Below, piece by piece: positions 4,789 through 40,600 of a DNA stretch of 64,000 nucleotides. This stretch comes from an uncultured Mycoplasmatota bacterium (GTDB taxonomy: Bacteria; Bacillota_I; Bacilli_A; RF39; UBA660), in NCBI GenBank assembly GCA_900549625.1, contig URPE01000002.1, forward strand, positions 66,885 through 130,884. The letters are read 5' to 3'. The notes under the pieces are model-generated. The model was not told the DNA's origin. It was given only the letters and a program-made list of their open reading frames with translations, and searched no databases. The stretch's first letter is position 1, and every line of letters begins with the position of its first letter. The position numbers were made by a program, and so were the translations under genes.

Positions 4789-5928
4789 TTAACTAGCTTT
4801 TTGATCAAGTGTTACATTAATTTCAACAGTCTCAGTACCACGCATAACTTTAAGTTTCATCGTTTCCCCTACACTGTGATTATAAAGCAGATATCTTAAA
4901 TAAGCCAAATTAGTAACCTCTTTATCATCTGCTCCAACAATAATATCACCAGTTTTTAAACCAGCCTTAGCAGCAGGAGCTCCAGAAGTAACACTTTCAA
5001 CATAAACACCAGATTCTAAAGAACTAGTATTTAAAGAAGGATGATAATATTTAGCTTCACTTAAATTACGCATAGATATACCAAGTTGAGGTCTTTCAAT
5101 TGTTTCACCTTTTTCTTCCTTAGCAGCATAATTTAAAGCTGTTTCAATTGGAATAGCAAATCCCATTCCTTCAATACTTGCTGTCGTAGAACTACTACCA
5201 GAAGATAACTTTAATGACGTAATACCAATAACCTCACCATTCGCGTTCATTAAAGGTCCCCCAGAATTACCAGAGTTAATAGCCGCATCGGTTTGTAAAA
5301 CACTCATCATCATATCAGACGTACTTGAATTACTTGTAGATACACTAACAAGTCTATTTTTACCAGAAACAATACCTCTTGTAACCGTACCAGAATATGT
5401 ATTAGAATCTATTGGTGCTCCAACAGTAAACACTGTATCTCCTACTCTTGCATCTTCACTACTACCCATTGTAGCCACTGTTGTAACATGTTCACTAGAT
5501 ATTGCTAAAACAGCTGTATCAGAATAACTATCTCGTCCCTTTACTTTTGTCTCTACCACATTGCCATCATTAAATTCAGCATATATAGCATCACCACTTT
5601 CAATAACGTGATTATTAGTTAAGACATATGCAGTATCACCATCTTTTTTATAAACAAATCCAGTTCCAGTAGCGTAAAGTTGTTTATTTTTATATGTCTT
5701 TACAACTACAACCGCATCATACACTTTTTCTACCGCATCAGCAATACCAGTATCCGTAACAGTTACATTCTTAACTTCTTTTTGTTCCGTAATAGTCTTC
5801 ACAAAAGGCTCAGGAAAAAAATACATGAGTGCATATAATCCTGCTGCCCCCACAAAAACCATTAAAATACTTATTAATACATACTTTCCTGCACTATGAA
5901 CAGTTACTACTTTTTCTTTCTTTTCCAT
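4789..5928 (-). CDS. htrA: HtrA/DegP-family serine protease (trypsin domain plus PDZ), membrane anchored
   Basis: GNSGGPL catalytic serine motif, TNNHV histidine region, N-terminal TM, C-terminal PDZ-like segment. Confidence 0.8.
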   Translation of the reverse strand: MEKKEKVVTVHSAGKYVLISILMVFVGAAGLYALMYFFPEPFVKTITEQKEVKNVTVTDTGIADAVEKVYDAVVVVKTYKNKQLYATGTGFVYKKDGDTAYVLTNNHVIESGDAIYAEFNDGNVVETKVKGRDSYSDTAVLAISSEHVTTVATMGSSEDARVGDTVFTVGAPIDSNTYSGTVTRGIVSGKNRLVSVSTSNSSTSDMMMSVLQTDAAINSGNSGGPLMNANGEVIGITSLKLSSGSSSTTASIEGMGFAIPIETALNYAAKEEKGETIERPQLGISMRNLSEAKYYHPSLNTSSLESGVYVESVTSGAPAAKAGLKTGDIIVGADDKEVTNLAYLRYLLYNHSVGETMKLKVMRGTETVEINVTLDQKAS

Positions 5929-23383: not shown

Positions 23384-24139
23384 TCACTTAATTTTCTTAT
23401 AAACATCTCTAACATTTTTCTCTGTTAAGGAAGATAAAGTATTAATATCTAGCCCAACATAATCACTAATAAAACTAGCAATTAAAGGAATATAACTAGG
23501 ACTATTCTTAGTACCCCTATAAGGATGCGGCGTTAAATATGGTGCATCAGTTTCTAAAACAATAATATCTAACATCTCTTCTAAAATCTCTTTTAAATGA
23601 CTATTTTTAAAAGTTACAACTCCATTAATACCTAATTTGTAACCCATTTTTTTATAAATTCTAGCTATTTCAATACTCCCTGAAAAAGAATGAATAACTC
23701 CTTTAACAGTCGGATATCTCTTTAAAATATTAATCGTGTCTTCAGTGGCTTCTCTTGAATGAATTACAACCGGTAAATTATATTTTTTAGCCAGTTCTAA
23801 TTGCTTAATAAACAATTCTTTTTGAGCATCTTTATTTAAAGTATCATAGTGATAATCAAGTCCAATCTCACCAATGCCCACTATTTTCTCATCTTTTAAA
23901 TGTCTTTCAATGTCTAAAATATCTTCTAAAGTATAAGTAAGCACATATTCTGGGTGTATACCTATTACCCCATACATAAATTTATACTTACTTACTTTTT
24001 CTATAACCTCTTTATTAGATAAACCATCACAACCAGCATTAATAAAAGAATGTACTCCCTTATTTATAGAATCATTAATTATCTCACCAAGAGACTCATA
24101 ATACTCATCATATAAATGACAATGTGTATCAGTAAACAT
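23384..24139 (-). CDS. tatD: TatD-family metal-dependent hydrolase/DNase (YabD)
   Basis: N-terminal DTHCHL, 251 aa, conserved His/Asp/Glu ligand positions. Confidence 0.85.
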   Translation of the reverse strand: MFTDTHCHLYDEYYESLGEIINDSINKGVHSFINAGCDGLSNKEVIEKVSKYKFMYGVIGIHPEYVLTYTLEDILDIERHLKDEKIVGIGEIGLDYHYDTLNKDAQKELFIKQLELAKKYNLPVVIHSREATEDTINILKRYPTVKGVIHSFSGSIEIARIYKKMGYKLGINGVVTFKNSHLKEILEEMLDIIVLETDAPYLTPHPYRGTKNSPSYIPLIASFISDYVGLDINTLSSLTEKNVRDVYKKIK

Positions 24140-24141
24140 AA

Positions 24142-26052
24142 CTATAAAGTCTCCAAAGAATCAATATTTCCTTGAAAGAAAGAAGTTCTATTTCTCTCTT
24201 CATTAGAATTACTATTAGTTATAGGTGCCTGCTCTATTGTAGCACTAGCCCCACCCATAATATCACTAGATATCTCTTCATTTAAATTAGTATTACTTTC
24301 CCAATAACTTGAAACATCACAACTAGATGAATATGGCCTTGGATTAGGCATTTCCATTTTAATAATCATTGGAATTTTAAAAGCACTACCAAAAGAAACA
24401 CAAGTACCAGGTTGTAAAATTTTCATTTTTTCAATAACATCTTGACTAATATTAGGAAGCATCTCCTCGATATATTTTATATCCTTAGGGTGTGTCATTT
24501 TAAAAATCAAGAAATTAGAACATTGTGAAACAACTGTATCACTTATTTCCATTGGTCTTTGACTAATTATTCCTAAAATAACCCCATACTTTCTTCCTTC
24601 TTTAGCAATACGTTCAAATATATTATAACCAAGTAAATAAACATCTATATCTTTTTGAATATAACGATGGGCTTCCTCTAAAAACAAATGAAAAGGAATT
24701 GTTGCCCTATTAGCGTTCTCTTTAGAAAAATCAAAAATAAGTCTTGTATATATTTTTACAATTGCCTTAGATATATTATCATCAAGTCCTTCTAAGTTTA
24801 TATTAATTATCTGGGCTTTCTTATTATTTTTACTAACTAATTTAGTAACAAACTCTCCCATCGTAACAGCTTTATCAGAAGAAAATAACTTACCAACTGG
24901 TCCATGAATAATTGAATAAAGTCTTACCTTTAATAACTGAGCATCATCCATCAAATTACGGTTATTTTGAAACCCTTCACTTATTAAAGTAAATTCTAAA
25001 GCCCGAGAAAAATCCATTAAAGAATAAGCAACGTCTCCCATACTTTCATCAATTTCTAATGTCTCATCTATATATTTAAGAATATATTCAGTAATTAAAA
25101 CCTCTTCCCCAAACTTTCCTCTAGAGTCTATTTGGAAACATTCTGAGAAAGTTCTTGTATAACCAACGCCAGGTATCTTGGTATCTAAATTAAATTCTTT
25201 TGTATGACAAGTATGAATAATACTAAAAATATCATCTTTTTTCTTATCAGTTGTTTCACTACTATATAAAACAGTTATTAAAGCACTAGCAATAATATGA
25301 TTTTTATAACGATTAGATTCAGGTGTATCTAAAGAAAACATTTTAGCAAGCTTCATAGCTCGTTCTAATATTGTTAACTGTGAATGCTTATCTGCTTGTA
25401 AAAGAATAGCCATATCATCTACTTTAAGTAAATTCATCGGAATATTAATCATTTCATCATCATTATCTTTAATTCTTGACGTTACAAATTTATATTGATA
25501 ATAAGGACTAATATTAGAAATGCTTTTAAAGGCATTTTTATATTCCCCAAAAGAATCAAAGAAAAGCATATTTGCATTATATGAAACAGCAAATTTATTA
25601 CTTAATAAGTTTTGTACTACTCTTGCTACACCACATGATTTACCAGAACCAGTATTACCAAATATACATAAATGATTAGCAAGCATTTCATTAATCGAAG
25701 GACAAATATAAGAATCTTTATATGTTGCACTTTTACCCATTACAAAGTTTTTCTTAGATTGAACACCCATTAACTCTGTTCTTTCTTCTTCATTAATTGT
25801 TCTTATATTACTATTTAAACTAGCTTTTTTTAAAACACCATTGTAATAATGGCCATCAATAAATTCCCCTAAAAATTTAACCCTTATTTCATCTGATTTA
25901 ACTTCAGTGATTTCACTAAGAACTTTATGATCTCCATTTTCAAATATTAAATGTAAGTTAAGTAAATCAGCACTTACATCATCAGTCATCTTATTTTCAA
26001 TATACCCAATATTATCACTTAAATATAATATTTTTCCAAACATAGCAAGCAT
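24142..26052 (-). CDS. HerA/DUF87-family ATPase (FtsK-HerA superfamily)
   Basis: Walker A IFGNTGSGKS, Walker B LFLEEAHRY, C-terminal GRKYGVILGIISQRP HerA-type motif; stop codon 2 nt from tatD start. Confidence 0.6.
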   Translation of the reverse strand: MLAMFGKILYLSDNIGYIENKMTDDVSADLLNLHLIFENGDHKVLSEITEVKSDEIRVKFLGEFIDGHYYNGVLKKASLNSNIRTINEEERTELMGVQSKKNFVMGKSATYKDSYICPSINEMLANHLCIFGNTGSGKSCGVARVVQNLLSNKFAVSYNANMLFFDSFGEYKNAFKSISNISPYYQYKFVTSRIKDNDDEMINIPMNLLKVDDMAILLQADKHSQLTILERAMKLAKMFSLDTPESNRYKNHIIASALITVLYSSETTDKKKDDIFSIIHTCHTKEFNLDTKIPGVGYTRTFSECFQIDSRGKFGEEVLITEYILKYIDETLEIDESMGDVAYSLMDFSRALEFTLISEGFQNNRNLMDDAQLLKVRLYSIIHGPVGKLFSSDKAVTMGEFVTKLVSKNNKKAQIININLEGLDDNISKAIVKIYTRLIFDFSKENANRATIPFHLFLEEAHRYIQKDIDVYLLGYNIFERIAKEGRKYGVILGIISQRPMEISDTVVSQCSNFLIFKMTHPKDIKYIEEMLPNISQDVIEKMKILQPGTCVSFGSAFKIPMIIKMEMPNPRPYSSSCDVSSYWESNTNLNEEISSDIMGGASATIEQAPITNSNSNEERNRTSFFQGNIDSLETL

Positions 26053-28057: not shown

Positions 28058-31000
28058 TCAATGTTGTTCAAAAGAAGATAATAATTTTATTTTAACAAGT
28101 TTGGAATTATTAATTATAAACCCAAAGTCAATCGGTATTTCTTCACGATCTTCTCTAGTTATTTTAGCTACTTTAAACAAATTTTGTTCATCTATACCAC
28201 TGCCGACAAAAATGCCTTTTGACGTATCTGCACCAACTTTAAACCATTCATCATAGGCAAATGTTTTTATTACATCAGGATTGTCAACAATAACAAAAGA
28301 TACTAAATTCATTTGATTATTTTTTTGTAAAGTACCACTAAATTTCTTTTTTAACTCATCAGACAATTTATTCATAAAATCATTTATTCCACAAATAAAT
28401 ACACAAAGTTTTTTATGTTCAAGTAAACTAGCATCATTGAATCCATTACCTTGATAAATATCGTAAACCTTATCAACATAATCAGCTACTTTATTTATAA
28501 TTGAATCATAATTATTATTGTAAATTTTTTTCTCAATATCTACTATATCAAACTTTATATCATTACCGTTTAATATTAAAACATCATAAACATTTACATA
28601 TAAAATTTCCTTAATTAACGCCTGTAAGAAACCAGTAATTTTCTCTATTTCATAACTACTAATAAGTGAAATACTAGATTTTCCAAAATTATATTTTTCA
28701 GTTTCTAAAGTATTTTTATTTAAACCAATAGCCATACTAGTATCACGAGATATATTTTTAATTACATCATCAAAAGAAACACTATCAGGCAAAGATGGTA
28801 TAGGTAAAGCCTTATCTATATAAGTTTCACTTAATTCATTACCAAGATTTTTAATAAATTCCGAAAAATTATTTTTGTCTGTTGAATATGCGGTTTGAAA
28901 TTCATACACATTTTCTTTTTTAAATAAGCCACGGCCTTTAATCTTAGCCGGTGTTTTCCCTCTTATATTACCAAAAATATTAGCATAATCAGAATCATTA
29001 TTTTGTTGTAAAGCATATGTAAGTGAAATGTTTTGTTTAATTTTAACTCTAACACTTGTTTCACTACTAGCACTAATCACAAAATATATTCCATAACGAT
29101 AACTTTCTCTTAAAATAGAAGCAAGTTGTTCATTTAAATCTTCAAAATTTTCCAGAAATGATTCATAGTTATTAATAATTACAACAACTGCCGGAACATT
29201 TTCTCCGGAATTTTGATTATAGCCTTCATATGTACCTCCAAAAGAAGAAAATAACTTTTTACGTTCAACTAACAACTCATTAACCATTTTAAAGAGATTT
29301 ATAATTTTATCAGTATCATTTAAATATGCCACATCACCAACATGAGGAACATTTTTAAAAACACCCAATGTCTCAGAACCAAAATCTAAAATATAATAAT
29401 TAATTTCTAAAGGCGAATAACTCGTTATACCAGAGTAGATCATCGTGCTTATAAAAGTATCTTTGCCAGAGCCAGTTGTACCATAAAGAATAGCATTACC
29501 ATACTTTGTAAGTGGTATTGTTAACAAATATTGATTTTGTGTATTTGGATCATCATACTCGCCAATAACTAAATTAATATCAAAATCCTTCTTAAGATAA
29601 TTATATTTACTCTTTAAAGCATCAACATATATTTTATCTGGTATCTTATCTAGCCACAATTTATGTATTTTTATATTTTCAGATATGGCTAAATCACTTA
29701 AATATTTTACAATATTAGTTAGTTCTTCTCCTTGAGATTCAATTTTATAACTTTTAGTATTATCTTTGGACATTGTAACAAAACCAATATTATTAATTGC
29801 ATTAACTGAATTATCAGTTTGTTTTTTAAAAGTCACACTTGGATAATACTGTCCTCCAGCCCAAGCAGATTGTCCTAACGTAAATATTTCATCATAACCA
29901 ACTTGCAAGTAGAATCTACCTGTTTTTTTCAAAAATGCAGCATCAGGTTTCTTCAATACCTCCTGTGAATCTCCAGTATCTTGAACTTTCAAGCAAACTC
30001 TAAATCTAGTATTGGACCATATTTGTTGATCAACAACTCCACCAGGTTTTTGGGTAGCCAAAATTAAATGAATTCCTAAACTACGACCTACACGTGCCAC
30101 ACTTATAAGTTTATCCATAAAGTCAGGTTGTTGCTCCTTTAATTCTGCAAATTCATCGCTAATAATAAACAAATGTGAAATTGGCTCCTTACCAACTAAC
30201 CTTCCTTCTTTCCAAAGTTTTTGATATTTATAAATGTCCATTGTACTTTCATTCGTAACAACTTTTGCATCATTAAATTCTTTTTGTCTTCTCTTTACCT
30301 CACTTTCAATTGAAGCAAGTGATCTATTAAGTTCATTTCCATCTAAATTAGTGATTGTTCCCGCTAAATGTGGAAGAACATATTTATCATTTTTAAAAGC
30401 ACCGGCTAAACTACCACCTTTATAATCTATCAAAATAATTTGTACATCATAAGGACTATAATTAATTGCTAAAGATAAAACAAAAGTTATAATAAATTCT
30501 GATTTACCAGAACCAGTAGTTCCAGCAATCAAACCATGTGGTCCATGATAACGCTCATGTAAATCAAGACTAATTATTTCACCACTTTTTCCAATACCAA
30601 CTGGTGCTTGTAAGGAAAGAACAGGGTTACTCTTCTTCCATCTATCAAAAGAATTCAAATGTTCAACCTTACCTACTTGATACATTTCTAAATAATGATA
30701 AACGTCTGGCAAACTAGTTTGAGCATCATTCTTTAGTTCAATCTCAATATTTGCCAGTTCAACTGCGCAATTATATAGTTCTTCAACTGAAGATTCATCA
30801 ATAACAAACTGTTGATTACTCAAGTTAATAACACTATTAAAAATATAACAACCACTTTTATTCAAATTAATAAAATTTTTGCATTCATTTGGACAAGCAG
30901 AAACTCTATCCACAAGCATGACCATACTAAAACCAATATTTTCTCCATTACTCAAAACATTTTTGATTAGGTCATAGTTATCAACTGATTTTATTGCATC

Positions 31001-32653
31001 AGTAATAATTATATAATGTGGAATATTCCTAGCATCATTATCATTTTCTACTCTAGATTGAAAAACTTTTTCTAAATTATAAGCAATTTCTCTATATTCA
31101 TCATTACTAGAAGCAAAATAACGAAAAGTTTTATCGTTAGACCAACAATGTGGTAAAACTTTAACATAATCCCAAGCCGCCTCATTTTCCATAGATGTTA
31201 ATAAAACAATTTTAACCTCATCATAACTATATCTTGTAACAATTTGTAAAATAAGTCTATCTATAAAATCTTTGTTAATTTTATAATTGCCAACTATACC
31301 AGTTGCCACATTATCATAAAAAGAATATGTAATTGGAACATCTTTAAGAATTCTTTCCTTTTGTCCTAACTTATGCACCTCATCTAACAAATTATCTTCA
31401 TCTAAAGAAAAATGTTCTTCGGGATACTTTATTTCAATTTGCATTGGTAAATTGCCAATACCAATTGGTAAAGTCAAAAAATCATCATCAGTTATTCTTT
31501 TTTGCCAAAGTTTAACATTATGACCTTTAATTATATCTTGACATTGACTAATACTAAAATTATTTTCAATTAACCCTTGACGCTGTTTTTCTAATTCATT
31601 TAAAATTTCTTTTTCTTTTTTAGTCAAATATTTCATATACAATTTTTGACGTTTTCTTTCTAAATTTTTATTAGAAAATTTTTGATAGGCTCTTGTAAGC
31701 ATTGGCCATAGTAAACTACTAGCTAGCATAACGACACACATTGCAATGCTTGTCCAAGAATCATCAAAAGTACGTTTTCCAGATCCAATGGAATTCATTG
31801 TTGACATAAGCATTACCACTGACATCATAGACATTGTAAGCATTGGTCCAATCGTTAAAATTTCAGGAGTGCCATCATCATTAACTTTTGTTGGTGGCGC
31901 ATCAATTTGTAATATATAATGAGAAAGTTTTTGATAAAAATATGGCGTACGATAAAAATAATCCTTAGAAAAATTTAAACTTTCATCATTTAATTCAGCA
32001 TAATCTTCATTATAAGAAATTTTTTGTGGAACAACATTAACAAACGCAGCATTAAAGGCAAGTAATCCTCCAGGATTATTAATAAGAAAATAATCAATAC
32101 CATCTTGTTTCATTAAAATAAGTTTTAACCCATACCAGAAAATAATATCACCATATAAAATTCTTTGATGTTTATCCACTCTATTTTGATTAACAAAAAT
32201 TAATGAATTATCATCATTAACAGTTAAATAATAATAATTATCTTTCTTATTTATTGTAAAAGCAACCTCACTTATACCACCTAAATTATAACAAATTTCA
32301 TTTTTAGAAGAATTACCCACATGAATAACACTTTCATTATTAACACCAAATTCCTTATAAGAATTATCATAAACTGGTGAACAATATAAATAGTATTTTT
32401 CATGTCGAAAATTATTTTGTAAAGAATAGAAATGATAATTTTGTAGTATAACATTTGGTATCATAATATCTTGGTTATCAACAATAAAAGCATCATCATT
32501 GCTTATTAGTTTCCACCCATCACTTGAAGCTTCTATATTAACCATGTTTATCTTACGTCCATTTTCATAATTGGTAATCCAATAATTACCTACAACATTT
32601 TCTGGAAGTTTAAACACATTTAACTTATTTTCTTTAATAATTACTATTTCCAT
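28058..32653 (-). CDS. essC: type VIIb secretion FtsK/SpoIIIE-family ATPase EssC/YukB
   Basis: 1531 aa; N-terminal FHA-like domains, TM segments, three P-loop domains (GTTGSGKSE, GTTGSGKD). Confidence 0.85.
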   Translation of the reverse strand: MEIVIIKENKLNVFKLPENVVGNYWITNYENGRKINMVNIEASSDGWKLISNDDAFIVDNQDIMIPNVILQNYHFYSLQNNFRHEKYYLYCSPVYDNSYKEFGVNNESVIHVGNSSKNEICYNLGGISEVAFTINKKDNYYYLTVNDDNSLIFVNQNRVDKHQRILYGDIIFWYGLKLILMKQDGIDYFLINNPGGLLAFNAAFVNVVPQKISYNEDYAELNDESLNFSKDYFYRTPYFYQKLSHYILQIDAPPTKVNDDGTPEILTIGPMLTMSMMSVVMLMSTMNSIGSGKRTFDDSWTSIAMCVVMLASSLLWPMLTRAYQKFSNKNLERKRQKLYMKYLTKKEKEILNELEKQRQGLIENNFSISQCQDIIKGHNVKLWQKRITDDDFLTLPIGIGNLPMQIEIKYPEEHFSLDEDNLLDEVHKLGQKERILKDVPITYSFYDNVATGIVGNYKINKDFIDRLILQIVTRYSYDEVKIVLLTSMENEAAWDYVKVLPHCWSNDKTFRYFASSNDEYREIAYNLEKVFQSRVENDNDARNIPHYIIITDAIKSVDNYDLIKNVLSNGENIGFSMVMLVDRVSACPNECKNFINLNKSGCYIFNSVINLSNQQFVIDESSVEELYNCAVELANIEIELKNDAQTSLPDVYHYLEMYQVGKVEHLNSFDRWKKSNPVLSLQAPVGIGKSGEIISLDLHERYHGPHGLIAGTTGSGKSEFIITFVLSLAINYSPYDVQIILIDYKGGSLAGAFKNDKYVLPHLAGTITNLDGNELNRSLASIESEVKRRQKEFNDAKVVTNESTMDIYKYQKLWKEGRLVGKEPISHLFIISDEFAELKEQQPDFMDKLISVARVGRSLGIHLILATQKPGGVVDQQIWSNTRFRVCLKVQDTGDSQEVLKKPDAAFLKKTGRFYLQVGYDEIFTLGQSAWAGGQYYPSVTFKKQTDNSVNAINNIGFVTMSKDNTKSYKIESQGEELTNIVKYLSDLAISENIKIHKLWLDKIPDKIYVDALKSKYNYLKKDFDINLVIGEYDDPNTQNQYLLTIPLTKYGNAILYGTTGSGKDTFISTMIYSGITSYSPLEINYYILDFGSETLGVFKNVPHVGDVAYLNDTDKIINLFKMVNELLVERKKLFSSFGGTYEGYNQNSGENVPAVVVIINNYESFLENFEDLNEQLASILRESYRYGIYFVISASSETSVRVKIKQNISLTYALQQNNDSDYANIFGNIRGKTPAKIKGRGLFKKENVYEFQTAYSTDKNNFSEFIKNLGNELSETYIDKALPIPSLPDSVSFDDVIKNISRDTSMAIGLNKNTLETEKYNFGKSSISLISSYEIEKITGFLQALIKEILYVNVYDVLILNGNDIKFDIVDIEKKIYNNNYDSIINKVADYVDKVYDIYQGNGFNDASLLEHKKLCVFICGINDFMNKLSDELKKKFSGTLQKNNQMNLVSFVIVDNPDVIKTFAYDEWFKVGADTSKGIFVGSGIDEQNLFKVAKITREDREEIPIDFGFIINNSKLVKIKLLSSFEQH

Positions 32654-32665
32654 ATACTCACCTCC

Positions 32666-32920
32666 CTAATACAAAATTAATTTAGAACCATTTTTTATAG
32701 AACTATATCTTACAAACTGTGCTTCATCAATAACGTTACCACTAACTCTATCATATAATCTCTTACAGCCATCATCAACAAAGGCATGATTACTTAGTTC
32801 TTCCACCATCTTAATAATTAAACTTTTAACAGTACCAACTTTTTTCCTAATAGGAATATACATATCATACTCTTCATCTATTATTGGCACTATAATTGTA
32901 ACTAAAATTTTATCCTTCAT
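32666..32920 (-). CDS. esaB: ubiquitin-like T7SS protein EsaB/YukD
   Basis: 84 aa, beta-grasp-like pattern, immediately upstream of essC. Confidence 0.5.
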   Translation of the reverse strand: MKDKILVTIIVPIIDEEYDMYIPIRKKVGTVKSLIIKMVEELSNHAFVDDGCKRLYDRVSGNVIDEAQFVRYSSIKNGSKLILY

Positions 32921-32970: not shown

Positions 32971-33948
32971 TTATCTCGTACGATTATTATAATTCCCAAA
33001 ATTTATAGAATCCACAAAATTTTCACTAAGTTCATCTAAATAGTCATTTTGTTTTAATTTATTTAACCATTTTTTGGGAATGTTTTCTCTTCCATATATA
33101 ATGCCATTAATTGAACCAGTAATTGCTCCAATTGTATCAGTATCATCACCTAAATTAATAGCAGAAATAACAGCAGACTCATAAGAGTCATTTTGTATAG
33201 TACACCATAAACTTGCCTCCAATGAATCGACAACATACCCAGAAGATTTAACTTCTGAAATATCCAAAAATTTTATATCACCATTTAAAATTCTTTGATA
33301 TGCCTTAATACTATCAGCTGAATAATATTTAACATAGTCATTATTTTTAAGTAAATCTAAAGCCTCAATTTTATCAACATTGTCAAGTAACGAAGAAACA
33401 TAATCTGAAAATATCTTACAACCAAGTTTACTTATTTCATGTGCATGAGTTAACGCAGAAGCTTGATTAATTATTGAAATGTTTTCGCTTTCTGAATAAT
33501 TAGAATATTTCAAATAATATACAAAAGGTAAAATTCTCATTAATGAGCCATTACCATTTTCGGTTATTCTCTTCATACCACAATCAACAGCATTAATTCC
33601 GTTTTTAAAATTCAAAATTGCGTTTCTAGTAGATATTCCAATATCAAATAATTCACCAGTAGCAGTATATTTTGCGTAATCTACCCATTCGGTAAATCTA
33701 TACATTATATCATTAAAATCAATTCTTCCTTTTATAACAATAGAATCCATTGTTGCAATCATAAGTGATGTGTCATCACTCCAAGTTCCTTCTGGAACGT
33801 CATGACTTCCAAAACCAAACATTCCTTTAACAGGATTTTTTTGTAATATTTTTCTACTTAAAAATTCCACAGGAACACCAAGTGCATCACCAACAGCAAA
33901 CCCTAGTATTCCAGCTTTCATCTTTTCATTCATTTTTATCACCATCAC
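32971..33948 (-). CDS. ADP-ribosylglycohydrolase (ARH/DraG/Tri1-like), predicted immunity protein for the adjacent ART toxin
   Basis: N-terminal GILGFAVGDALGVPVEF ARH signature, 325 aa, C-terminal GDDTDTIGAITGS metal-site motif. Confidence 0.7.
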   Translation of the reverse strand: MMVIKMNEKMKAGILGFAVGDALGVPVEFLSRKILQKNPVKGMFGFGSHDVPEGTWSDDTSLMIATMDSIVIKGRIDFNDIMYRFTEWVDYAKYTATGELFDIGISTRNAILNFKNGINAVDCGMKRITENGNGSLMRILPFVYYLKYSNYSESENISIINQASALTHAHEISKLGCKIFSDYVSSLLDNVDKIEALDLLKNNDYVKYYSADSIKAYQRILNGDIKFLDISEVKSSGYVVDSLEASLWCTIQNDSYESAVISAINLGDDTDTIGAITGSINGIIYGRENIPKKWLNKLKQNDYLDELSENFVDSINFGNYNNRTR

Positions 33949-34157
33949 TTAATTTGCCTGGGACTATCATTAGTAATATTATTTTTATTATTATTATTAT
34001 TAGAATCAGATGGAATTGAAAGACCTCTAGAGGCTAATAGCATGTCCCTTTTCCTCAAAAGTTCTTCTATTTCTTTTTTTATCTCAATATCACTCTTGCC
34101 TTCAGTATCGAATGTAAATTTAACATCAAGAGCTTTTTCTTTTTCATTATCAATCAT
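33945..34157 (-). CDS. small hypothetical protein (70 aa) between toxin and ARH gene
   Basis: ORF overlapping ARH start by 4 nt. Confidence 0.3.
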   Translation of the reverse strand: MIDNEKEKALDVKFTFDTEGKSDIEIKKEIEELLRKRDMLLASRGLSIPSDSNNNNNKNNITNDSPRQIK

Positions 34158-34176
34158 ACATATCTCCTATCTATAT

Positions 34177-37152
34177 TTATTTTACCACACATTTAACTAT
34201 TATTTTTTCAAGACCATTAATATCTTTTACAGGTGATGACACATCTACTATTGTTAATTCAGTATTCCTTGCTAATAAAAATTCATTTTCCAAGTTATAG
34301 AAATCAGAAATTTGATTTATATAAGCACCTGGAGTACCCTTTTTAGCAATTATATCTAAAACTATTGGACAATCCATTCTTTTAGCAAAGGAAGTACTAT
34401 ATGCAGGAGAGGTACTTACATAACTTAAATCCTTAAAAGGTTTACCGATAAGAGTTTCCAAAGTAGTTGAAATTCTTGGCAAATCATTTTCAGCAATACC
34501 ATCAAACAAAGCGGCATAAACTGAGCTTTGAGCTGTAAAAGCAGATAAATTCACTCCCCTATATAATTCAGTTGCCTGCTCCAATCCGCCATATTTCATA
34601 ATAGCAGAATCAATATTTTTAACAAGTTTTTTTGCATCAAAACCATTTATATTACCATGAACATTTTTGGCCCTTATTTGACCATTTATAATGCTATACG
34701 CACTACTACTATAAATCCTTAAAGCAGAAATCTCGTCAGTTGTAAGCCGTGATAAAAATCTTCCCTGAATAGTATTATTCAAAAAATTCTGAAAAGAGGC
34801 TTTTGAAGCTCCAGATAATTTTCCAAGAACTTGTTGAACGGAGTATCCATGAACAAACATGTCATGAATAATTTTGCCTGCATCTCCATAATATGAAGAC
34901 ATTTGCCTTTTTGCTTCATCAAGCAATATACTAAATGAAATATAATTAGTTGGTTCACCAAAAGAATTTAAATCTGAAACATTTTCAGATAAGTTTTCTA
35001 TAGTTTGATTATTATTTAATTTCTGTAAATTCATAGTTTCAGTTATATCTAAAGAATCAAGTTGATTGTTACTAATATTATCATTTATATCAGATAAATT
35101 CATGGTTATCGTAACATCATTAGAAATATCTTGTTGTCTAGAAAATTTAGTATTAGCAATCATAGAAGGAGTATTTAATATACCAGCAGTAATACCTCCG
35201 TATAATGCACTTTGTATTACATTTCCTTTTAATTCATTTCCATCTATTTTCTCTCCAGTTATTAATGATTTTACTTCTTCTCCAAATATCTCTTGCCCGC
35301 CTTCTTCTAAGCCTTCTTTTGCCATTGAATGTATATAACTTTTGAAACTATCAACTGGTACATCATTAAAAAAACTTATTCCACCTAAAAATTTCTCGGT
35401 TATACTTTCTGTTGCTCCTGATATTACCCCATATGTTAAGGCTTGACTATTTGTATATCCTTCTGTTAACATTTCATGATAACTATTGCCTCCAGCTGAT
35501 ATTCCTAATAAGGCCGAACCTATTGCTCCTCCTCCTGCCATACTTAATGCTATCGATGGAGCCATATTTCCTATTCCTTGACTTATTGCATAATTATCTT
35601 TTAAATATGCTCCTGTATAATCTCCACTTGCTAAGGCTTGACTTAAATACATATTTTCGTATTCTTCTATTGTATTTGCTCTACTTGGACTTTCTCCTGT
35701 TATAAATGCTCCAGCTGCACTTATTGCATGTTCTATTCCACTTGCACTTGATTGTATTCCACTATCTATCCCTTTTCCTGTTACTTTTAAATGATTGGTA
35801 ATTGCTTCTTTTATATTTTCTTCCTTTGAAAGAGTATTTAAATATGCCTGTGCTTTCTCTTTACCTATTGCTTGATTTACTGTATTCTCTATTACTTTTA
35901 AATATTCATTAGCTTCATATACACCATATTTATCATTTAAATAATTATATATCTTACTATATGTTTCATCTGTCCTTGCTACATGTATTAAATTTAACAA
36001 TTGTTTTGTATGATCATCAACCGAATATGCTTCATTACTTAATTTTGATATTCTCTCTTCTAATCCCCTTGCATATTCTAATTCACTTACTTGTCCATAT
36101 CTTTTACAATATTCTTCATAACTTGTAAAATAATTGACTCCTTCGACATTTTCTATTGTTATTTTACTACTATCTACTTTATCTTTATTTTGATATTTAT
36201 CATAATCACTTAATACAGTTAAACATTCATATTTTGCTACATCTATATTTTGTTCTATTTGTTCTATGTTTGTTTCACAACTTGTTTTTAATTCCTTTAA
36301 TTCACTTATATATTTCTTGTAATCTTCTAATGTTCCAAACTTTTCTTTTATTACCTTTTGTGATTCTTTACTCAACATACTTATATCATCTATTGTTCTT
36401 AAATGATACTTTGCTCGACTAAATTCGTTTTCTATTGTTTCATATTCTTTTAACTCTTCATCTACTGCACTTATATATTGTTTCATTAATGTTTTTTGTG
36501 ATTCTAATGGATTTGTATATTCTTGATATGTTTCATTATACACTTTATCATCTATTACTAACTCTGGTGTTTCTACTTTGCTATCAATAAAACTTAATAA
36601 ACTTTTTAAAACATTTCCTATCTTTGATATCTTTGTTGCTTTACCTACCTCTTCATCACTTGTATTTATTATCTCATTATCACTTATTCTTCTATCTGTT
36701 TCTTTTATAAACTTACTTATATATTTTGACATTTCTTGTGTATTAGAACTTTGTTCGTTATATGTGTTTATCTCAAATAATTCTGTATCATTAACACTAG
36801 ATGAATCTATAGACATACTTATCTTACTTGCTACTATACTTGCATTGCTTTCTTTTACAATACCACCTTTTTCACTAACTTTGTTTTCTAAGCCTTCTAT
36901 ATCATTACAATATTCTTGCATATAAGAAACTATATTATTTATATTATTAGAAATATCATTATAATTACTTTTTATCTTCTTTAATAATCCATTAAAAGCT
37001 GATATATCATCATAATTGTCTGTTTGATAATTACTTATATCAAATACTTCCTTTTTATTAAGATAGTACTTACTATAATTTTCTAAAGTGTCAATAACTT
37101 TTCTTATATTATCCGTGTTTACTTCAGTTATCACCTTCATGAGAAAAACCAA
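34177..37152 (-). CDS. LXG-type polymorphic toxin with C-terminal C3/VIP2-like (R-S-E class) mono-ADP-ribosyltransferase domain
   Basis: C-terminal ELYRGV (Arg), YVSTSPAYSTS (STS) and ENEFLLARNTEL (E-x-E ARTT loop) motifs; N-terminal helical secretion domain shared with 37631..44467. Confidence 0.7.
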   Translation of the reverse strand: MVFLMKVITEVNTDNIRKVIDTLENYSKYYLNKKEVFDISNYQTDNYDDISAFNGLLKKIKSNYNDISNNINNIVSYMQEYCNDIEGLENKVSEKGGIVKESNASIVASKISMSIDSSSVNDTELFEINTYNEQSSNTQEMSKYISKFIKETDRRISDNEIINTSDEEVGKATKISKIGNVLKSLLSFIDSKVETPELVIDDKVYNETYQEYTNPLESQKTLMKQYISAVDEELKEYETIENEFSRAKYHLRTIDDISMLSKESQKVIKEKFGTLEDYKKYISELKELKTSCETNIEQIEQNIDVAKYECLTVLSDYDKYQNKDKVDSSKITIENVEGVNYFTSYEEYCKRYGQVSELEYARGLEERISKLSNEAYSVDDHTKQLLNLIHVARTDETYSKIYNYLNDKYGVYEANEYLKVIENTVNQAIGKEKAQAYLNTLSKEENIKEAITNHLKVTGKGIDSGIQSSASGIEHAISAAGAFITGESPSRANTIEEYENMYLSQALASGDYTGAYLKDNYAISQGIGNMAPSIALSMAGGGAIGSALLGISAGGNSYHEMLTEGYTNSQALTYGVISGATESITEKFLGGISFFNDVPVDSFKSYIHSMAKEGLEEGGQEIFGEEVKSLITGEKIDGNELKGNVIQSALYGGITAGILNTPSMIANTKFSRQQDISNDVTITMNLSDINDNISNNQLDSLDITETMNLQKLNNNQTIENLSENVSDLNSFGEPTNYISFSILLDEAKRQMSSYYGDAGKIIHDMFVHGYSVQQVLGKLSGASKASFQNFLNNTIQGRFLSRLTTDEISALRIYSSSAYSIINGQIRAKNVHGNINGFDAKKLVKNIDSAIMKYGGLEQATELYRGVNLSAFTAQSSVYAALFDGIAENDLPRISTTLETLIGKPFKDLSYVSTSPAYSTSFAKRMDCPIVLDIIAKKGTPGAYINQISDFYNLENEFLLARNTELTIVDVSSPVKDINGLEKIIVKCVVK

Positions 37153-37266
37153 CCTTTTAAACGTCTAATGTTTCTAAAGAGGCTACTGCTTGTTCATATT
37201 CTTTTTTTGCTTTCTTTATTTCTGTCGTTTGATATATATTCATTAATTTATTTTTAAACTCTTTTC
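35159..37266. repeat. 2108-bp direct repeat, copy A (identical to 42474..44581)
   Basis: position-by-position identity with offset 7315; identical spurious antisense ORFs in track. Confidence 0.9.
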
Positions 37267-37630: not shown

Positions 37631-40600
37631 CTAACTAGCTTTTTCAATTTGAAGGTCATTAATTTTAATATCTATCTTTTCTAACAAAGAATCTATATCA
37701 ATATCTATCTTATTAATTCTTTGAGTCTTCTCATTGGTAACATCAAACTTTCTATTTTCATCCTTAATAGTGTTCTTTATAAATAATAAATTGTCAATGT
37801 CGTCTGAATTTTTAATGGCTTCATTTAATAAGTTAGTAACTCTATCAGCTGAAAAATATTTAGTTATTAGTTCACTATCCGTTGCATTTCTATATCCACT
37901 TCTATTATTTTCATGTAATGTTAATATTGATTTTATCAATTCAACATTTCCAGTACTTTTATACTCTTTTATCAATTTATCTATTTTAATACTTTCTGAC
38001 TGTGCTAGTTTAGACTTATTAATATACACTAATGGAACATTAAAATCTACACTTGCTTTATATGCATTTTGTTTCTGTTCAGCACTCATCTCTTCAAATA
38101 CAACAACATAATCTGGTTGAATATTAGCAAGACGACCTTCACCAGTCAAATTTGTTCTTTCTAAATTAAATTCATTGTGTGTATGTCTAGTCTCATTCAT
38201 AACATCTTTTCCAGGTAAATATAATAGCTGGCGTTGACTTTTTATTACATATCCATCATTCATTGTAAAAATATCATAAGGTGCCATCATATTCATTTGT
38301 TCATTTGAAAAACTATTAAAGCCTATTACAACACCTTTACCCTTAACCATAGCCATTCCCATATTATTATTAGAAATCAAAGAACAGCATATACCATGAT
38401 TAGCAGTTCTACTAGACAAATTCCATGAATCAAAATAACTATCATTTATTATAGGCATTCCGCCATAGTTAGTATAGGTACTCTGAATTAGCATTTGAAA
38501 ATCACTTTCTGGTTCATAAACAGGAATTTTTTTCCCTTCATACTCGACATAATTGGTTATTTTAGTAGGATTAAACAAAGTTGCTTTTAGGCTTTTTGTA
38601 TAGACTTGTTTAATTGCGTTTATTATATTTAATGTATCATTCATATTATAACTGCTTGTTGATTCTAAACTAGAATAAACATTTTTAGCATTTTCAAGAG
38701 ATGATATATTTAAAATATCATTGATTTTACTCAAATAGGTTGTTGCAATTCCATTAGCATCTAAATCTTTAATTGATGAAAAATTACTGCCATACATTCT
38801 ATACAATTCAGTTGCGTCCTCTAAACTCATAGAAAAATATTTATTAAAAATTAAATTTTGAACCTCTGTAACATTAGTAGCATGCTTCAACAATGAATCA
38901 CACTTTTCAGCTAATTTAATATTATAATTTCTTAAATTATAATTATCTGGAGTAACAAGACTTCTCTCTCTCTTAACTTCTTGATTATTACCATTCACAA
39001 CAGAAAACAAATCGACTTGTTTTAAAATAATATTTCTTGCATTTTCCAAATCTGTTAAATCATGTATATTTAACAATTCAGCATTCACATCATTTTTTAG
39101 AAGATAATTTAACATAAAAGACATTTTTTGATCAGCTACTATTGAACTGGCAGAAGAATTATCATTAATAACAGATTGAACAAATAAATCAAATTTATCA
39201 TTATTACTCTTAAGTTGATTAATCTGCTCTACAACATCATAATATTTACTTAACTTAGTTAAGAATTTATCCCCAAACTTATAAATAGCTTCTTCAAATA
39301 AAGAATAATTAAATGTTGATAAAACAAATCTATTTTTTTCTTTAATTTTAGATAATACATTTAGCTTTTCATCATTAATCAAACCTTTTTTATATGCTTC
39401 AGCAAAAAGAGATTTTTGAGGTATAGTAGCTTCTTTTAACAAATTATTAATTTGGTTATTTCCAATATCATTTATAAACTTATCAATCTTATCGGTTAAT
39501 AATTTTTTGTTTTCAGCAGATAAATTTTCGTAAATAAGTTCAGCATCAGTATACATAAAATTATTTAATATTAAATCATTACTTTTTATCATTTCATTAA
39601 ACTTACTATTTAAATCTTTTCGTTTTGAAAATGAAAGTAAAAATCCCAAAAAATCATTATCAGCATTATTTAAAATATAATCAATATACTGTGGTTCTAA
39701 ACTATCAAAAAAGCCATCAAAATATTTTAAATTATCTGCATCGATAGACTTTCTAAATTTATTATCACTTATAATTTCTTCTATTAATTTAAATTTTGTA
39801 TCTTTATTTTTAACAAGTCCACGAAACAACATATAATATTTATCAGTACTTTCCAATGAATCTAATATTTCAAGTTGTTGAGTAGTTTCATAATGACTAA
39901 GTAATTCTGAAAAATAATGATACTGATAAGATGAATAAGAAGTACGATTAAAATTAAAGCCTTCAATCATATTTTTTATTTTTTCTAAATCAAGCTTTGT
40001 AAAAGCTTCTTTTCTAGCTAATTCTAAAACTGTTTCAGTATTAATATTATCATAAAACTTATTTATATCACCATTTTCTTTTAGTAAACTCAAAAAATCT
40101 ATTGTCTCATTATGACTAGAGTAATTATTCATTATATTTATTAATTGAGGAAATTCTCTAAAAGCTTCTATATACTCTTGTTCAAGTCCAAGTTGCATGA
40201 CATATTCATAATTAAAAGCGACTAATTTTTGCTTTTTTGAAAGATAATTTATTACCTTTTTATAAGCTTCTTCATTATAATTTGCCATTGCCCTTAAGTG
40301 GTCACCAGATATACCACGACATTCCTTAGATTTTATTTTATCTATCACAATATCTACCAATTGTTCACTATTGAATAATCCAATTGTTGAAAATAGTGTA
40401 TCAATTGGTATATTGTCTTTTATTTTCTGTTTACCAATAGGATCTGCAGCTTCATACAAATCAATTAAAGTACCTTCATAACCCATTTGGATACTCTTAA
40501 AATCATTGGCAATCAATTTATCAATAACAGCATCTATTGCCTTTTGATTTCCAAGTTTAGCTAAATCAGAATATTTTTCACTTGGTAACTCAAGGGCAGC

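Follow-up and report, generated by a model that had tools for sequence, protein, structure and literature searches.

How does a gut bacterium that carries a gene for a secreted ADP-ribosylating toxin protect itself, and what is the role of a very short gene lying between the toxin gene and the gene of a possible antidote enzyme? These questions are raised by a locus on contig URPE01000002.1 of an uncultured Mycoplasmatota bacterium, which derives from a human-gut metagenome; the whole stretch of 64,000 nucleotides that was analyzed is called the window here. The genes of the locus all lie on the minus strand, tightly packed as an operon (Table 1), and encode in this order a DUF4176 protein, a 987-amino acid (aa) protein ending in an ADP-ribosyltransferase (ART) domain, a 70-aa protein, and an ADP-ribosylhydrolase (ARH). 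We read these four genes, with a probability of roughly 0.7, as a cassette of chaperone, toxin, small protein, and hydrolase belonging to an antibacterial toxin secreted by a type VII secretion system (T7SS), with self-protection in two parts. The broader statement, that a T7SS-associated ART toxin is accompanied here by ARH immunity, is very likely correct.

The toxic activity was sought in the C-terminal 247 aa of the toxin, on which the profile PF03496 (ADPrib_exo_Tox) scored 93 bits (E=2e-26; curated cut-off 23.4 bits). This match emerged only with the isolated C-terminal domain, the full-length toxin giving neither an ART nor an LXG match in Pfam and NCBIfam. The triad R-S-E and the C3/VIP2-like character, both of which had been proposed for this end of the protein in an earlier sequence-only reading, were borne out. 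In the numbering of the 987-aa protein, the motifs ELYRG with R861, YVSTS with S909/T910/S911, and LENEF with E951/E953 are intact. Solved structures of C3, C2-I, VIP2, CdtA, Certhrax, SpvB, and Listeria Lmo0066 matched the domain with E-values down to 4e-7, and the alignments pass through R, STS, and ExE, the same motifs as in C3 and C2-I. Between the ART of the window and six relatives (7 sequences, 40-66% identity), R, S-x-S, and E-N-E are unchanged. Judged from these matches, the C-terminal domain is an ART of the C3/VIP2 family with an R-S-ExE site and not a chance resemblance. In this ART family E-x-E, not Q-x-E, marks arginine-specific transferases, and from the R-S-ExE site we predict that ADP-ribose is passed from NAD+ to arginine.

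The open reading frame (ORF) of the toxin had previously been given as 991 aa. It does exist on the minus strand, but translation very probably begins at the ATG at 37140 and yields 987 aa, because the gene callers chose that ATG and the N-terminal domain family begins there. In a collection of 15 billion proteins the exact toxin forms a singleton cluster, found only in this gut-metagenome organism. For a relative that is common in the human gut (L002-L007, at about 5400-5500), the real toxin gene has about 839 aa, while the gene callers give a C-terminal fragment of 303 aa that bears the name 'bH3531 protein'. These fragment calls arise because a stretch of N interrupts the scaffold within a repetitive region rich in Lys, Ala, and Ser, and the database entries for that toxin are therefore truncated.

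The candidate antidote is encoded two ORFs downstream of the toxin, and its earlier assignment to the DraG/ARH family withstood a profile search: PF03747 scored 224.6 bits (E=2.7e-66; cut-off 26.2), with profile positions 2-286 of 287 covered. The protein is 320-324 aa long, depending on the start, of which the ATG at 33933 is the probable one. All catalytic motifs are present, namely GDALGVPVEF (E27), WSDDTS (D57, D58), FDIG (D101), NGNGSLMR, LTHAH (H167), SSGYVVDSLEA, and LGDDTDT (D268-T269-D270-T271), and they line up with the same motifs in Tri1. Across eight ARH orthologues of 48-72% identity, E27, D57-D58, D101, H167, and D268-T-D270-T271 are invariant; in DraG and ARH3, these acidic and threonine residues form the binuclear metal site. 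The invariance of the catalytic positions argues for an active enzyme over a relic that only binds, and protection by the ARH would be enzymatic, through hydrolysis.

The best solved relatives of the ARH are, in this order, Lmo0067 (chain A of 8ZA7, crystallised with the ART Lmo0066; matched across 313 residues with E=5e-74), Tri1 (6DRE/6DRH; E=6e-42), and DraG. On the NCBIfam equivalog model of Tri1 (NF041672), the ARH reached 172.1 bits, which is under the cut-off of 490 bits; it is thus a relative of Tri1 and not an orthologue. Moreover, the alignment begins only at residue 70 of Tri1 (model position 67 of NF041672). The ARH of the window is therefore without the N-terminal part of Tri1, which comprises about 65 aa.

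The linkage of toxin and hydrolase was examined in further loci. A pattern scan in which each species was represented by a single genome gave eight reference loci with this ART subtype; the 11 metagenome contigs inspected comprise six with the closest ART and five reached via relatives of the small protein. A toxin gene followed by an ARH gene was seen at eight of eight reference-genome loci and on 11 of 11 metagenome contigs. The loci lie in at least four different neighbourhoods, by essC, by secE-nusG, by a topoisomerase gene, and by HD/Band_7-domain genes, and since the linkage is kept in all of these, the cassette moves as a unit. This constant arrangement of ART and then ARH is the genomic signature expected of a toxin-immunity module. 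The relatives stem from assemblies of uncultured Bacilli, 'Tenericutes', and Clostridium sp. CAG:417, and cassettes of this family occur commonly among the Bacilli of the human gut. Most of the related ART toxins (L002-L008, L012, L096, and L097) are immediately preceded by a DUF4176 gene; in L098/L099 this gene adjoins the toxin on the opposite strand, and in L010 it is present as a sole copy downstream.

The 70-aa ORF between toxin and hydrolase, also noticed in the sequence-only reading, proved to be the member of a conserved family. It has an AGGAG ribosome-binding site 6 nt before its ATG, and its stop overlaps the start of the ARH gene or ends within 11 nt of it. A profile search collected 51 clusters of 34-111 aa, none of them annotated, including one cluster that occurs on at least 1,000 contigs. 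Three motifs characterize the family: an N-terminal strand-like [FI]P[ED]V[EK]FTF, a helix-like EIEELLxKRxxLL with an invariant Arg, and an acidic or polar tail mostly ending in P-R-x-x-R/K. Wherever the gene context of a member was inspected, a PF03496 toxin stood on one side of it and a PF03747 ARH on the other. The small protein is found in 17 of the 19 loci (8 reference, 11 metagenome), and one further locus, L010 from an uncultured Bacilli genome of the rabbit gut, has a fused form, the small protein being joined in frame to the N-terminus of the ARH in an ORF of 378 aa. The 70-aa ORF is thus a genuine, conserved third gene.

A possible role for this gene is suggested by the Tre1/Tri1 pair of Serratia proteamaculans, a type VI secretion system ART toxin with a bifunctional immunity protein, as shown in 2018 (Ting et al., as summarised in PMC11606950). 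The N-terminal part of Tri1 puts a helix (residues 27-33) into the active site of Tre1 (PMC11606950). As in that pair, an R-S-ExE ART is combined here with an ARH, which in Tri1 reverses the modification, and the layout of plug and hydrolase is realized as two adjacent genes in the window and as one fused gene in L010. The two systems differ in several respects: the secretion system is of type VII here, in an organism of the Gram-positive type, and of type VI there, the ART of the window is of the PF03496 C3/VIP2 type while Tre1 was not among its PDB matches, and the toxin-binding N-terminal extension of Tri1 is not on the ARH polypeptide of the window, where a separate 70-aa gene holds that position. 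We infer from this comparison a split, two-part immunity that would consist of a toxin-binding plug and an enzymatic eraser. That the small protein is the toxin-binding half is a tentative proposal, to which we give a little less than even odds. Somewhat more tentative still is the view that the 70-aa protein is an unrecognised third component of ART/ARH systems, a toxin-specific plug that stands free beside a generic catalytic eraser, so that the two functions united in Tri1 would lie on separate, translationally coupled polypeptides. With such a division, a diversifying toxin could receive a new plug and retain its hydrolase. More speculatively, the arginine-specific active site could be occupied by a pseudo-substrate, furnished by the invariant Arg of the helix or by the basic C-terminal tail P-R-x-x-R. 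Few bacterial toxin systems are known to have an enzymatic 'eraser' as immunity, and a natural split of the two Tri1 functions would make the binding and the catalytic immunity separable by simple genetics.

Other arrangements around the hydrolase were also seen. The ARTs of L013 and L015 diverge most, and there an unrelated conserved ORF of 226 aa takes the place of the small protein, with the ARH kept; the related ART is internal in these loci (L013 2901-11732 and L015 167-6362), occupying residues 1719-1891 of a 2,394-aa protein. Among 80 metagenome loci fetched with the ARH alignment, which were mostly unlinked ARH paralogues, an ART was present only in L018 and L080; this set is little informative on the small protein but displays other variable modules that adjoin the ARH or are fused to it. 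The high-GC metagenome contig L080 (2502-4951) codes for a protein of 429 aa whose N-terminus is helical and which contains a PF03496 ART (E=3e-37). The stop of its gene overlaps the start of the gene for a 387-aa ARH. This ARH bears a Cys-rich N-terminal extension of about 75 aa that is unrelated in sequence to the 70-aa family, and it represents a further ART-ARH pair with an added N-terminal module. The swap in L013 and L015 together with the extension in L080 indicates that a variable module accompanies the toxin, while a constant hydrolase is retained. In L018 (5-4263), the ART toxin (LYRGV, FMSTSP, ENEFLL) is followed by ORFs of 137 and 171 aa and then by the ARH, and the 171-aa ORF has an 'HDVVED' motif that, judged by eye, is HD-hydrolase-like.

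According to our proposal, an N-terminal helical hairpin would direct the toxin to the EssC machine, and its long middle region would be stabilised by the adjacent DUF4176 chaperone. Using NAD+, the C-terminal ART would then modify, at an arginine, a protein essential to a rival bacterium. In the producer, the hydrolase of the DraG/Tri1 family would strip ADP-ribose off the modified arginine, and the 70-aa protein, as a counterpart of the N-terminal extension of Tri1, would bind the cognate toxin domain and block it stoichiometrically. Both the arginine specificity and the bacterial target of the ART are probable features that we infer, and the target would be the main biological prize of this system.

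Several observations weigh against this proposal, most of them concerning the small protein. Its family profile found no relative among the PDB sequences, the chains of Tri1 included, or in Pfam, and these searches do not support homology of the small protein to the N-terminus of Tri1, the parallel being one of architecture only. The fusion in L010 rests on one metagenome-assembled genome, Lapin-026 bin92 (CANRDF010000003.1); its junction had no other occurrence in an exact search of a second collection, made up of metagenome contigs, and a fused small protein-ARH is absent from the 51 small-protein clusters. In 8ZA7, the close ARH relative, which is aligned from its residue 19 and has no extension of Tri1 length, is complexed with an ART, and there was no third chain among the PDB hits obtained. 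If the ARH of the window behaves like the one in 8ZA7, the small protein might be left with a different job. The ARH alone could then give immunity, by binding and/or hydrolysis as for Lmo0066-Lmo0067, and the 70-aa protein could be an accessory of the toxin, either a stabiliser before export or an adaptor for release or targeting; T7SS toxins do need several small helper proteins (PMC12478183). However, the genes of known T7SS targeting factors and chaperones precede the toxin gene, and their products work on the N-terminal or middle region of the toxin, while the 70-aa gene is downstream of the toxin, with its translation coupled to that of the ARH. A helper that is exported together with the toxin is also hard to square with L010, where the module is fused to an immunity enzyme of the cytoplasm. 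We consider it unlikely that the ARH acts alone in immunity.

The bacterial target is likewise open to objection, in that the nearest solved ARTs mostly hit eukaryotic proteins such as actin, Rho, and vinculin. The best PDB matches, C3, C2-I, VIP2, CdtA, Certhrax, and SpvB, are anti-eukaryotic toxins, and the organism is resident in the human gut. The toxin could therefore be aimed at host proteins such as actin or Rho, the ARH being a shield from accidental self-modification or a housekeeping enzyme. On the other hand, a strictly linked reversing enzyme and a second linked protein imply a sensitive target in the producer, a shared N-terminus with variable C-termini is the layout typical of interbacterial antagonism, and the nearest ARHs of named function, Tri1 and DraG, act on bacterial proteins. 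A host target appears improbable to us. Finally, the ART-fold domain could consume NAD+ as a glycohydrolase or modify nucleic acid, with the ARH-fold protein neutralising it by binding only. Secreted toxin families do include ART-fold NADases and RNA/DNA modifiers, according to the portion of the literature compared here, but the R-S-ExE site is complete and ExE is the arginine-specific signature; in addition, the metal-binding and catalytic motifs of the ARH are strongly conserved, which would be needless for a pure binder. Such an activity is very improbable, and arginine ADP-ribosylation of a bacterial protein is the reading that we prefer.

The sequence-only reading had set the Tre1/Tri1-like pairing of an ART with an ARH immunity gene in a Gram-positive T7SSb LXG context. 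Such a pairing is not new: it was catalogued in 2012 for Firmicute T7SS toxins (PMC3482391), and a Listeria complex is present in the PDB (8ZA7); the pairing of toxin and ARH seen here is a confirmation, not a discovery. In the part of the 2012 catalogue of Zhang et al. that was compared (PMC3482391), Tox-ART-RSE toxins are exported by the Firmicute T7SS (WXG, LXG, LDXD), and an active ADP-ribosylglycohydrolase (Imm-ADP-RGHD/Imm-ARG) serves as immunity that is predicted to reverse the modification. The cassette is of the same class, but that part of the catalogue mentions no separate small protein between toxin and hydrolase, and it lists LXG toxins while the N-terminal domain of the window has no LXG match. 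The T7SS-locus complex of Lmo0066/Lmo0067 from Listeria monocytogenes (8ZA7) demonstrates physical pairing between an ART and a member of this ARH clade. The ART partner chain Lmo0066 matches the ART of the window with E=0.005, the two ART domains being only distantly related, and within the literature collection searched there was no paper on the function of Lmo0066/Lmo0067. The C3, C2-I, VIP2, and iota-type ARTs act on actin or Rho of eukaryotes, as exotoxins that are either stand-alone or binary. They share with the window the catalytic family PF03496 with R, STS, and ExE aligned, but are without an immunity gene, whereas the ART of the window forms the C-terminal end of a polymorphic toxin that belongs to a T7SS and has an immunity of its own. 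New here, and absent from the compared parts of these sources, are the conserved free-standing small protein, which we read as split bifunctional immunity, and the non-LXG N-terminal family.

The N-terminus of the toxin had been called LXG in the sequence-only reading, and this label had to be dropped. PF04740 (LXG) gave no match to the N-terminal 200 aa even at E<=1 and, at E<=0.001, matched none of 27 proteins with the N-terminal domain and none of the eight related ART toxins. No L-x-G, W-x-G, or YxxxD/E motif was found, L.G and W.G being checked in residues 1-260, and no LxG column was common to at least 8 of the 28 sequences in the family alignment. Instead, a HMMER search with toxin residues 1-240 yielded 37 proteins, nearly all matched over residues ~5-135 at the extreme N-terminus. 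This unannotated family of about 130 aa, with the consensus M..I..NT...YY.nKKs.F...YL.DY..D.EglEN, stands at the head of at least 35 protein clusters. The proteins that bear it reach 5,100 aa and vary in their C-termini (transglutaminase, cell-wall hydrolase, ART); one N-terminal family on such differing C-termini is a hallmark of polymorphic toxins.

Against PDB sequences, the profile of the N-terminal family returned nothing meaningful, and the structure of residues 1-250 was modeled using AlphaFold2. The single-sequence model was unusable (predicted local distance difference test score, pLDDT, 45), and the prediction was rerun with the 28-sequence alignment, which resulted in a pLDDT of 81 and a helical hairpin plus a third helix (helices 9-32, 43-88, and 98-110). 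The top matches of this model in Foldseek were the WXG100 proteins EsxA/EsxB (3ZBH with a probability of 0.96 and a target TM of 0.75), all with E>=1.5. The modeled fold is consistent with a T7SS substrate, without being a proof of it, and homology to LXG domains is not claimed from structure as the Foldseek matches were non-significant (E>=1.5). We treat the N-terminus as a separate, unannotated family with a predicted helical hairpin. A survey guided by Pfam LXG or by the core genes of the T7SSb would overlook both this family and the gene set described below.

Downstream of the ARH gene, the order continues with an 84-aa ORF, essC, the WXG100/ESAT-6-like ORFs, a 149-aa ORF, and the gene of a DUF87/HerA ATPase. 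The island between tatD and metG spans positions 24142-46400 of the window. It contains three WXG100/ESAT-6-like ORFs, all downstream of essC and including one for a 218-aa protein; PF06013 (WXG100) was found in the 218-aa ORF, as a C-terminal domain, and in a 97-aa ORF. In addition to its FtsK/SpoIIIE stretches, the EssC-type ATPase has a weak FHA match. No family match was obtained for the 149-aa ORF. The 84-aa ORF, which also has no Pfam or NCBIfam match, has a counterpart of 34% identity adjoining EssC in L010. The assignment as a type VII secretion locus is supported because EssC, WXG100 proteins, and the DUF4176 chaperone are encoded together. The T7SSb context proposed earlier stands only in so far as a T7SS locus is concerned: among the island ORFs of at least 80 aa scanned between metG and tatD (a 118-aa plus-strand ORF at 46056-46412 excepted), none had a match to EsaA, EssA, or EssB, whose genes could lie outside the window. 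There was also no Pfam match to the Lap genes DUF3130/DUF3958 among the island ORFs. With its Ser/Thr kinase and HerA-like ATPase, the gene set fits none of the layouts T7SSa-j in PMC11217815 and would represent a minimal, atypical T7SS with a non-LXG export family.

An LXG toxin predicted to be an ART has been reported as abundant in human gut metagenomes (Whitney et al. 2017, PMC5555719). The LXG toxins TelA/TelB (PMC5555719, PMC12478183) resemble the toxin of the window in their helical N-terminus (helical by prediction in the window), long middle region, and variable C-terminal toxin domain, in the DUF4176 gene immediately upstream, and in being encoded beside essC. DUF4176 proteins are toxin-specific chaperones that stabilise T7SSb toxins via the middle region (PMC12478183). 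In contrast to TelA/TelB with their Lap targeting factors, PF04740, L-x-G, Lap genes, and EsaA/EssA/EssB are undetected here. Within the cassette, the spacing is 4-16 nt from the end of the DUF4176 gene to the toxin start, 19 nt between toxin and 70-aa ORF, and 0-11 nt between 70-aa ORF and ARH. A promoter and terminator scan saw no terminators between the cassette genes, and promoter-like matches were below chance.

Table 1. Features of the locus, with positions in the window; functions are predicted.
Feature	Position	Strand	Basis or remark
DUF4176 (Ltc-type) toxin chaperone gene, 115 aa	37157..37504	-	PF13780, E=9.5e-23
Polymorphic toxin gene, 987 aa	34177..37140	-	Listed ORF reaches TTG at 37152 (991 aa)
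Helical-hairpin trafficking domain, ~135 aa (toxin residues 1-135)	36736..37140	-	Not LXG by Pfam
ADP-ribosyltransferase domain (toxin residues 796-983)	34192..34755	-	PF03496, catalytic motifs
Conserved small protein, 70 aa, proposed stand-alone toxin-binding immunity module	33945..34157	-	AGGAG ribosome-binding site, family of 51 clusters
DraG/Tri1-family ADP-ribosyl(arginine) hydrolase (ARH), proposed enzymatic immunity	32971..33945 (ORF 32971-33948)	-	PF03747
84-aa ORF, EsaB/YukD position, directly before essC	32666..32920	-	Position only
EssC-type FtsK/SpoIIIE ATPase, 1,531 aa, T7SS motor	28058..32653	-	PF01580, E=5.5e-47, two stretches
Toxin-like paralogue, 2,274 aa	37631..44455	-	First 661 residues identical to the 987-aa toxin
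Exact direct duplication, 2,108 bp, copy 1	35159..37266	-	Identical to 42474-44581
Ser/Thr kinase gene, 250 aa	44674-45426		Island
DUF87/HerA ATPase gene	24142-26052		Island
metG	46402-47955		Flank of island
tatD	23384-24139		Other flank of island

Upstream of the cassette lies the gene of a 2,274-aa toxin-like paralogue. Its C-terminal part of about 1,613 aa (37631-42472) had no match in Pfam or the PDB. It is followed directly by the gene of the DUF4176 chaperone of the ART toxin and not by any obvious immunity gene. The two toxin genes are connected by the exact duplication listed in Table 1, both copies of which are bounded by mismatches on either side. It begins within the DUF4176 gene, of which it takes in the final 114 nt, and continues through the spacer into the toxin gene up to codon 661 (664 when counted from the TTG); as a consequence the 987-aa toxin and the 2,274-aa protein have identical N-terminal two-thirds. 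This looks like a very recent recombination that exchanged C-terminal payloads, although it could also be an assembly artefact. Upstream of the gene for the 2,274-aa protein, only the tail of a DUF4176 gene is left.

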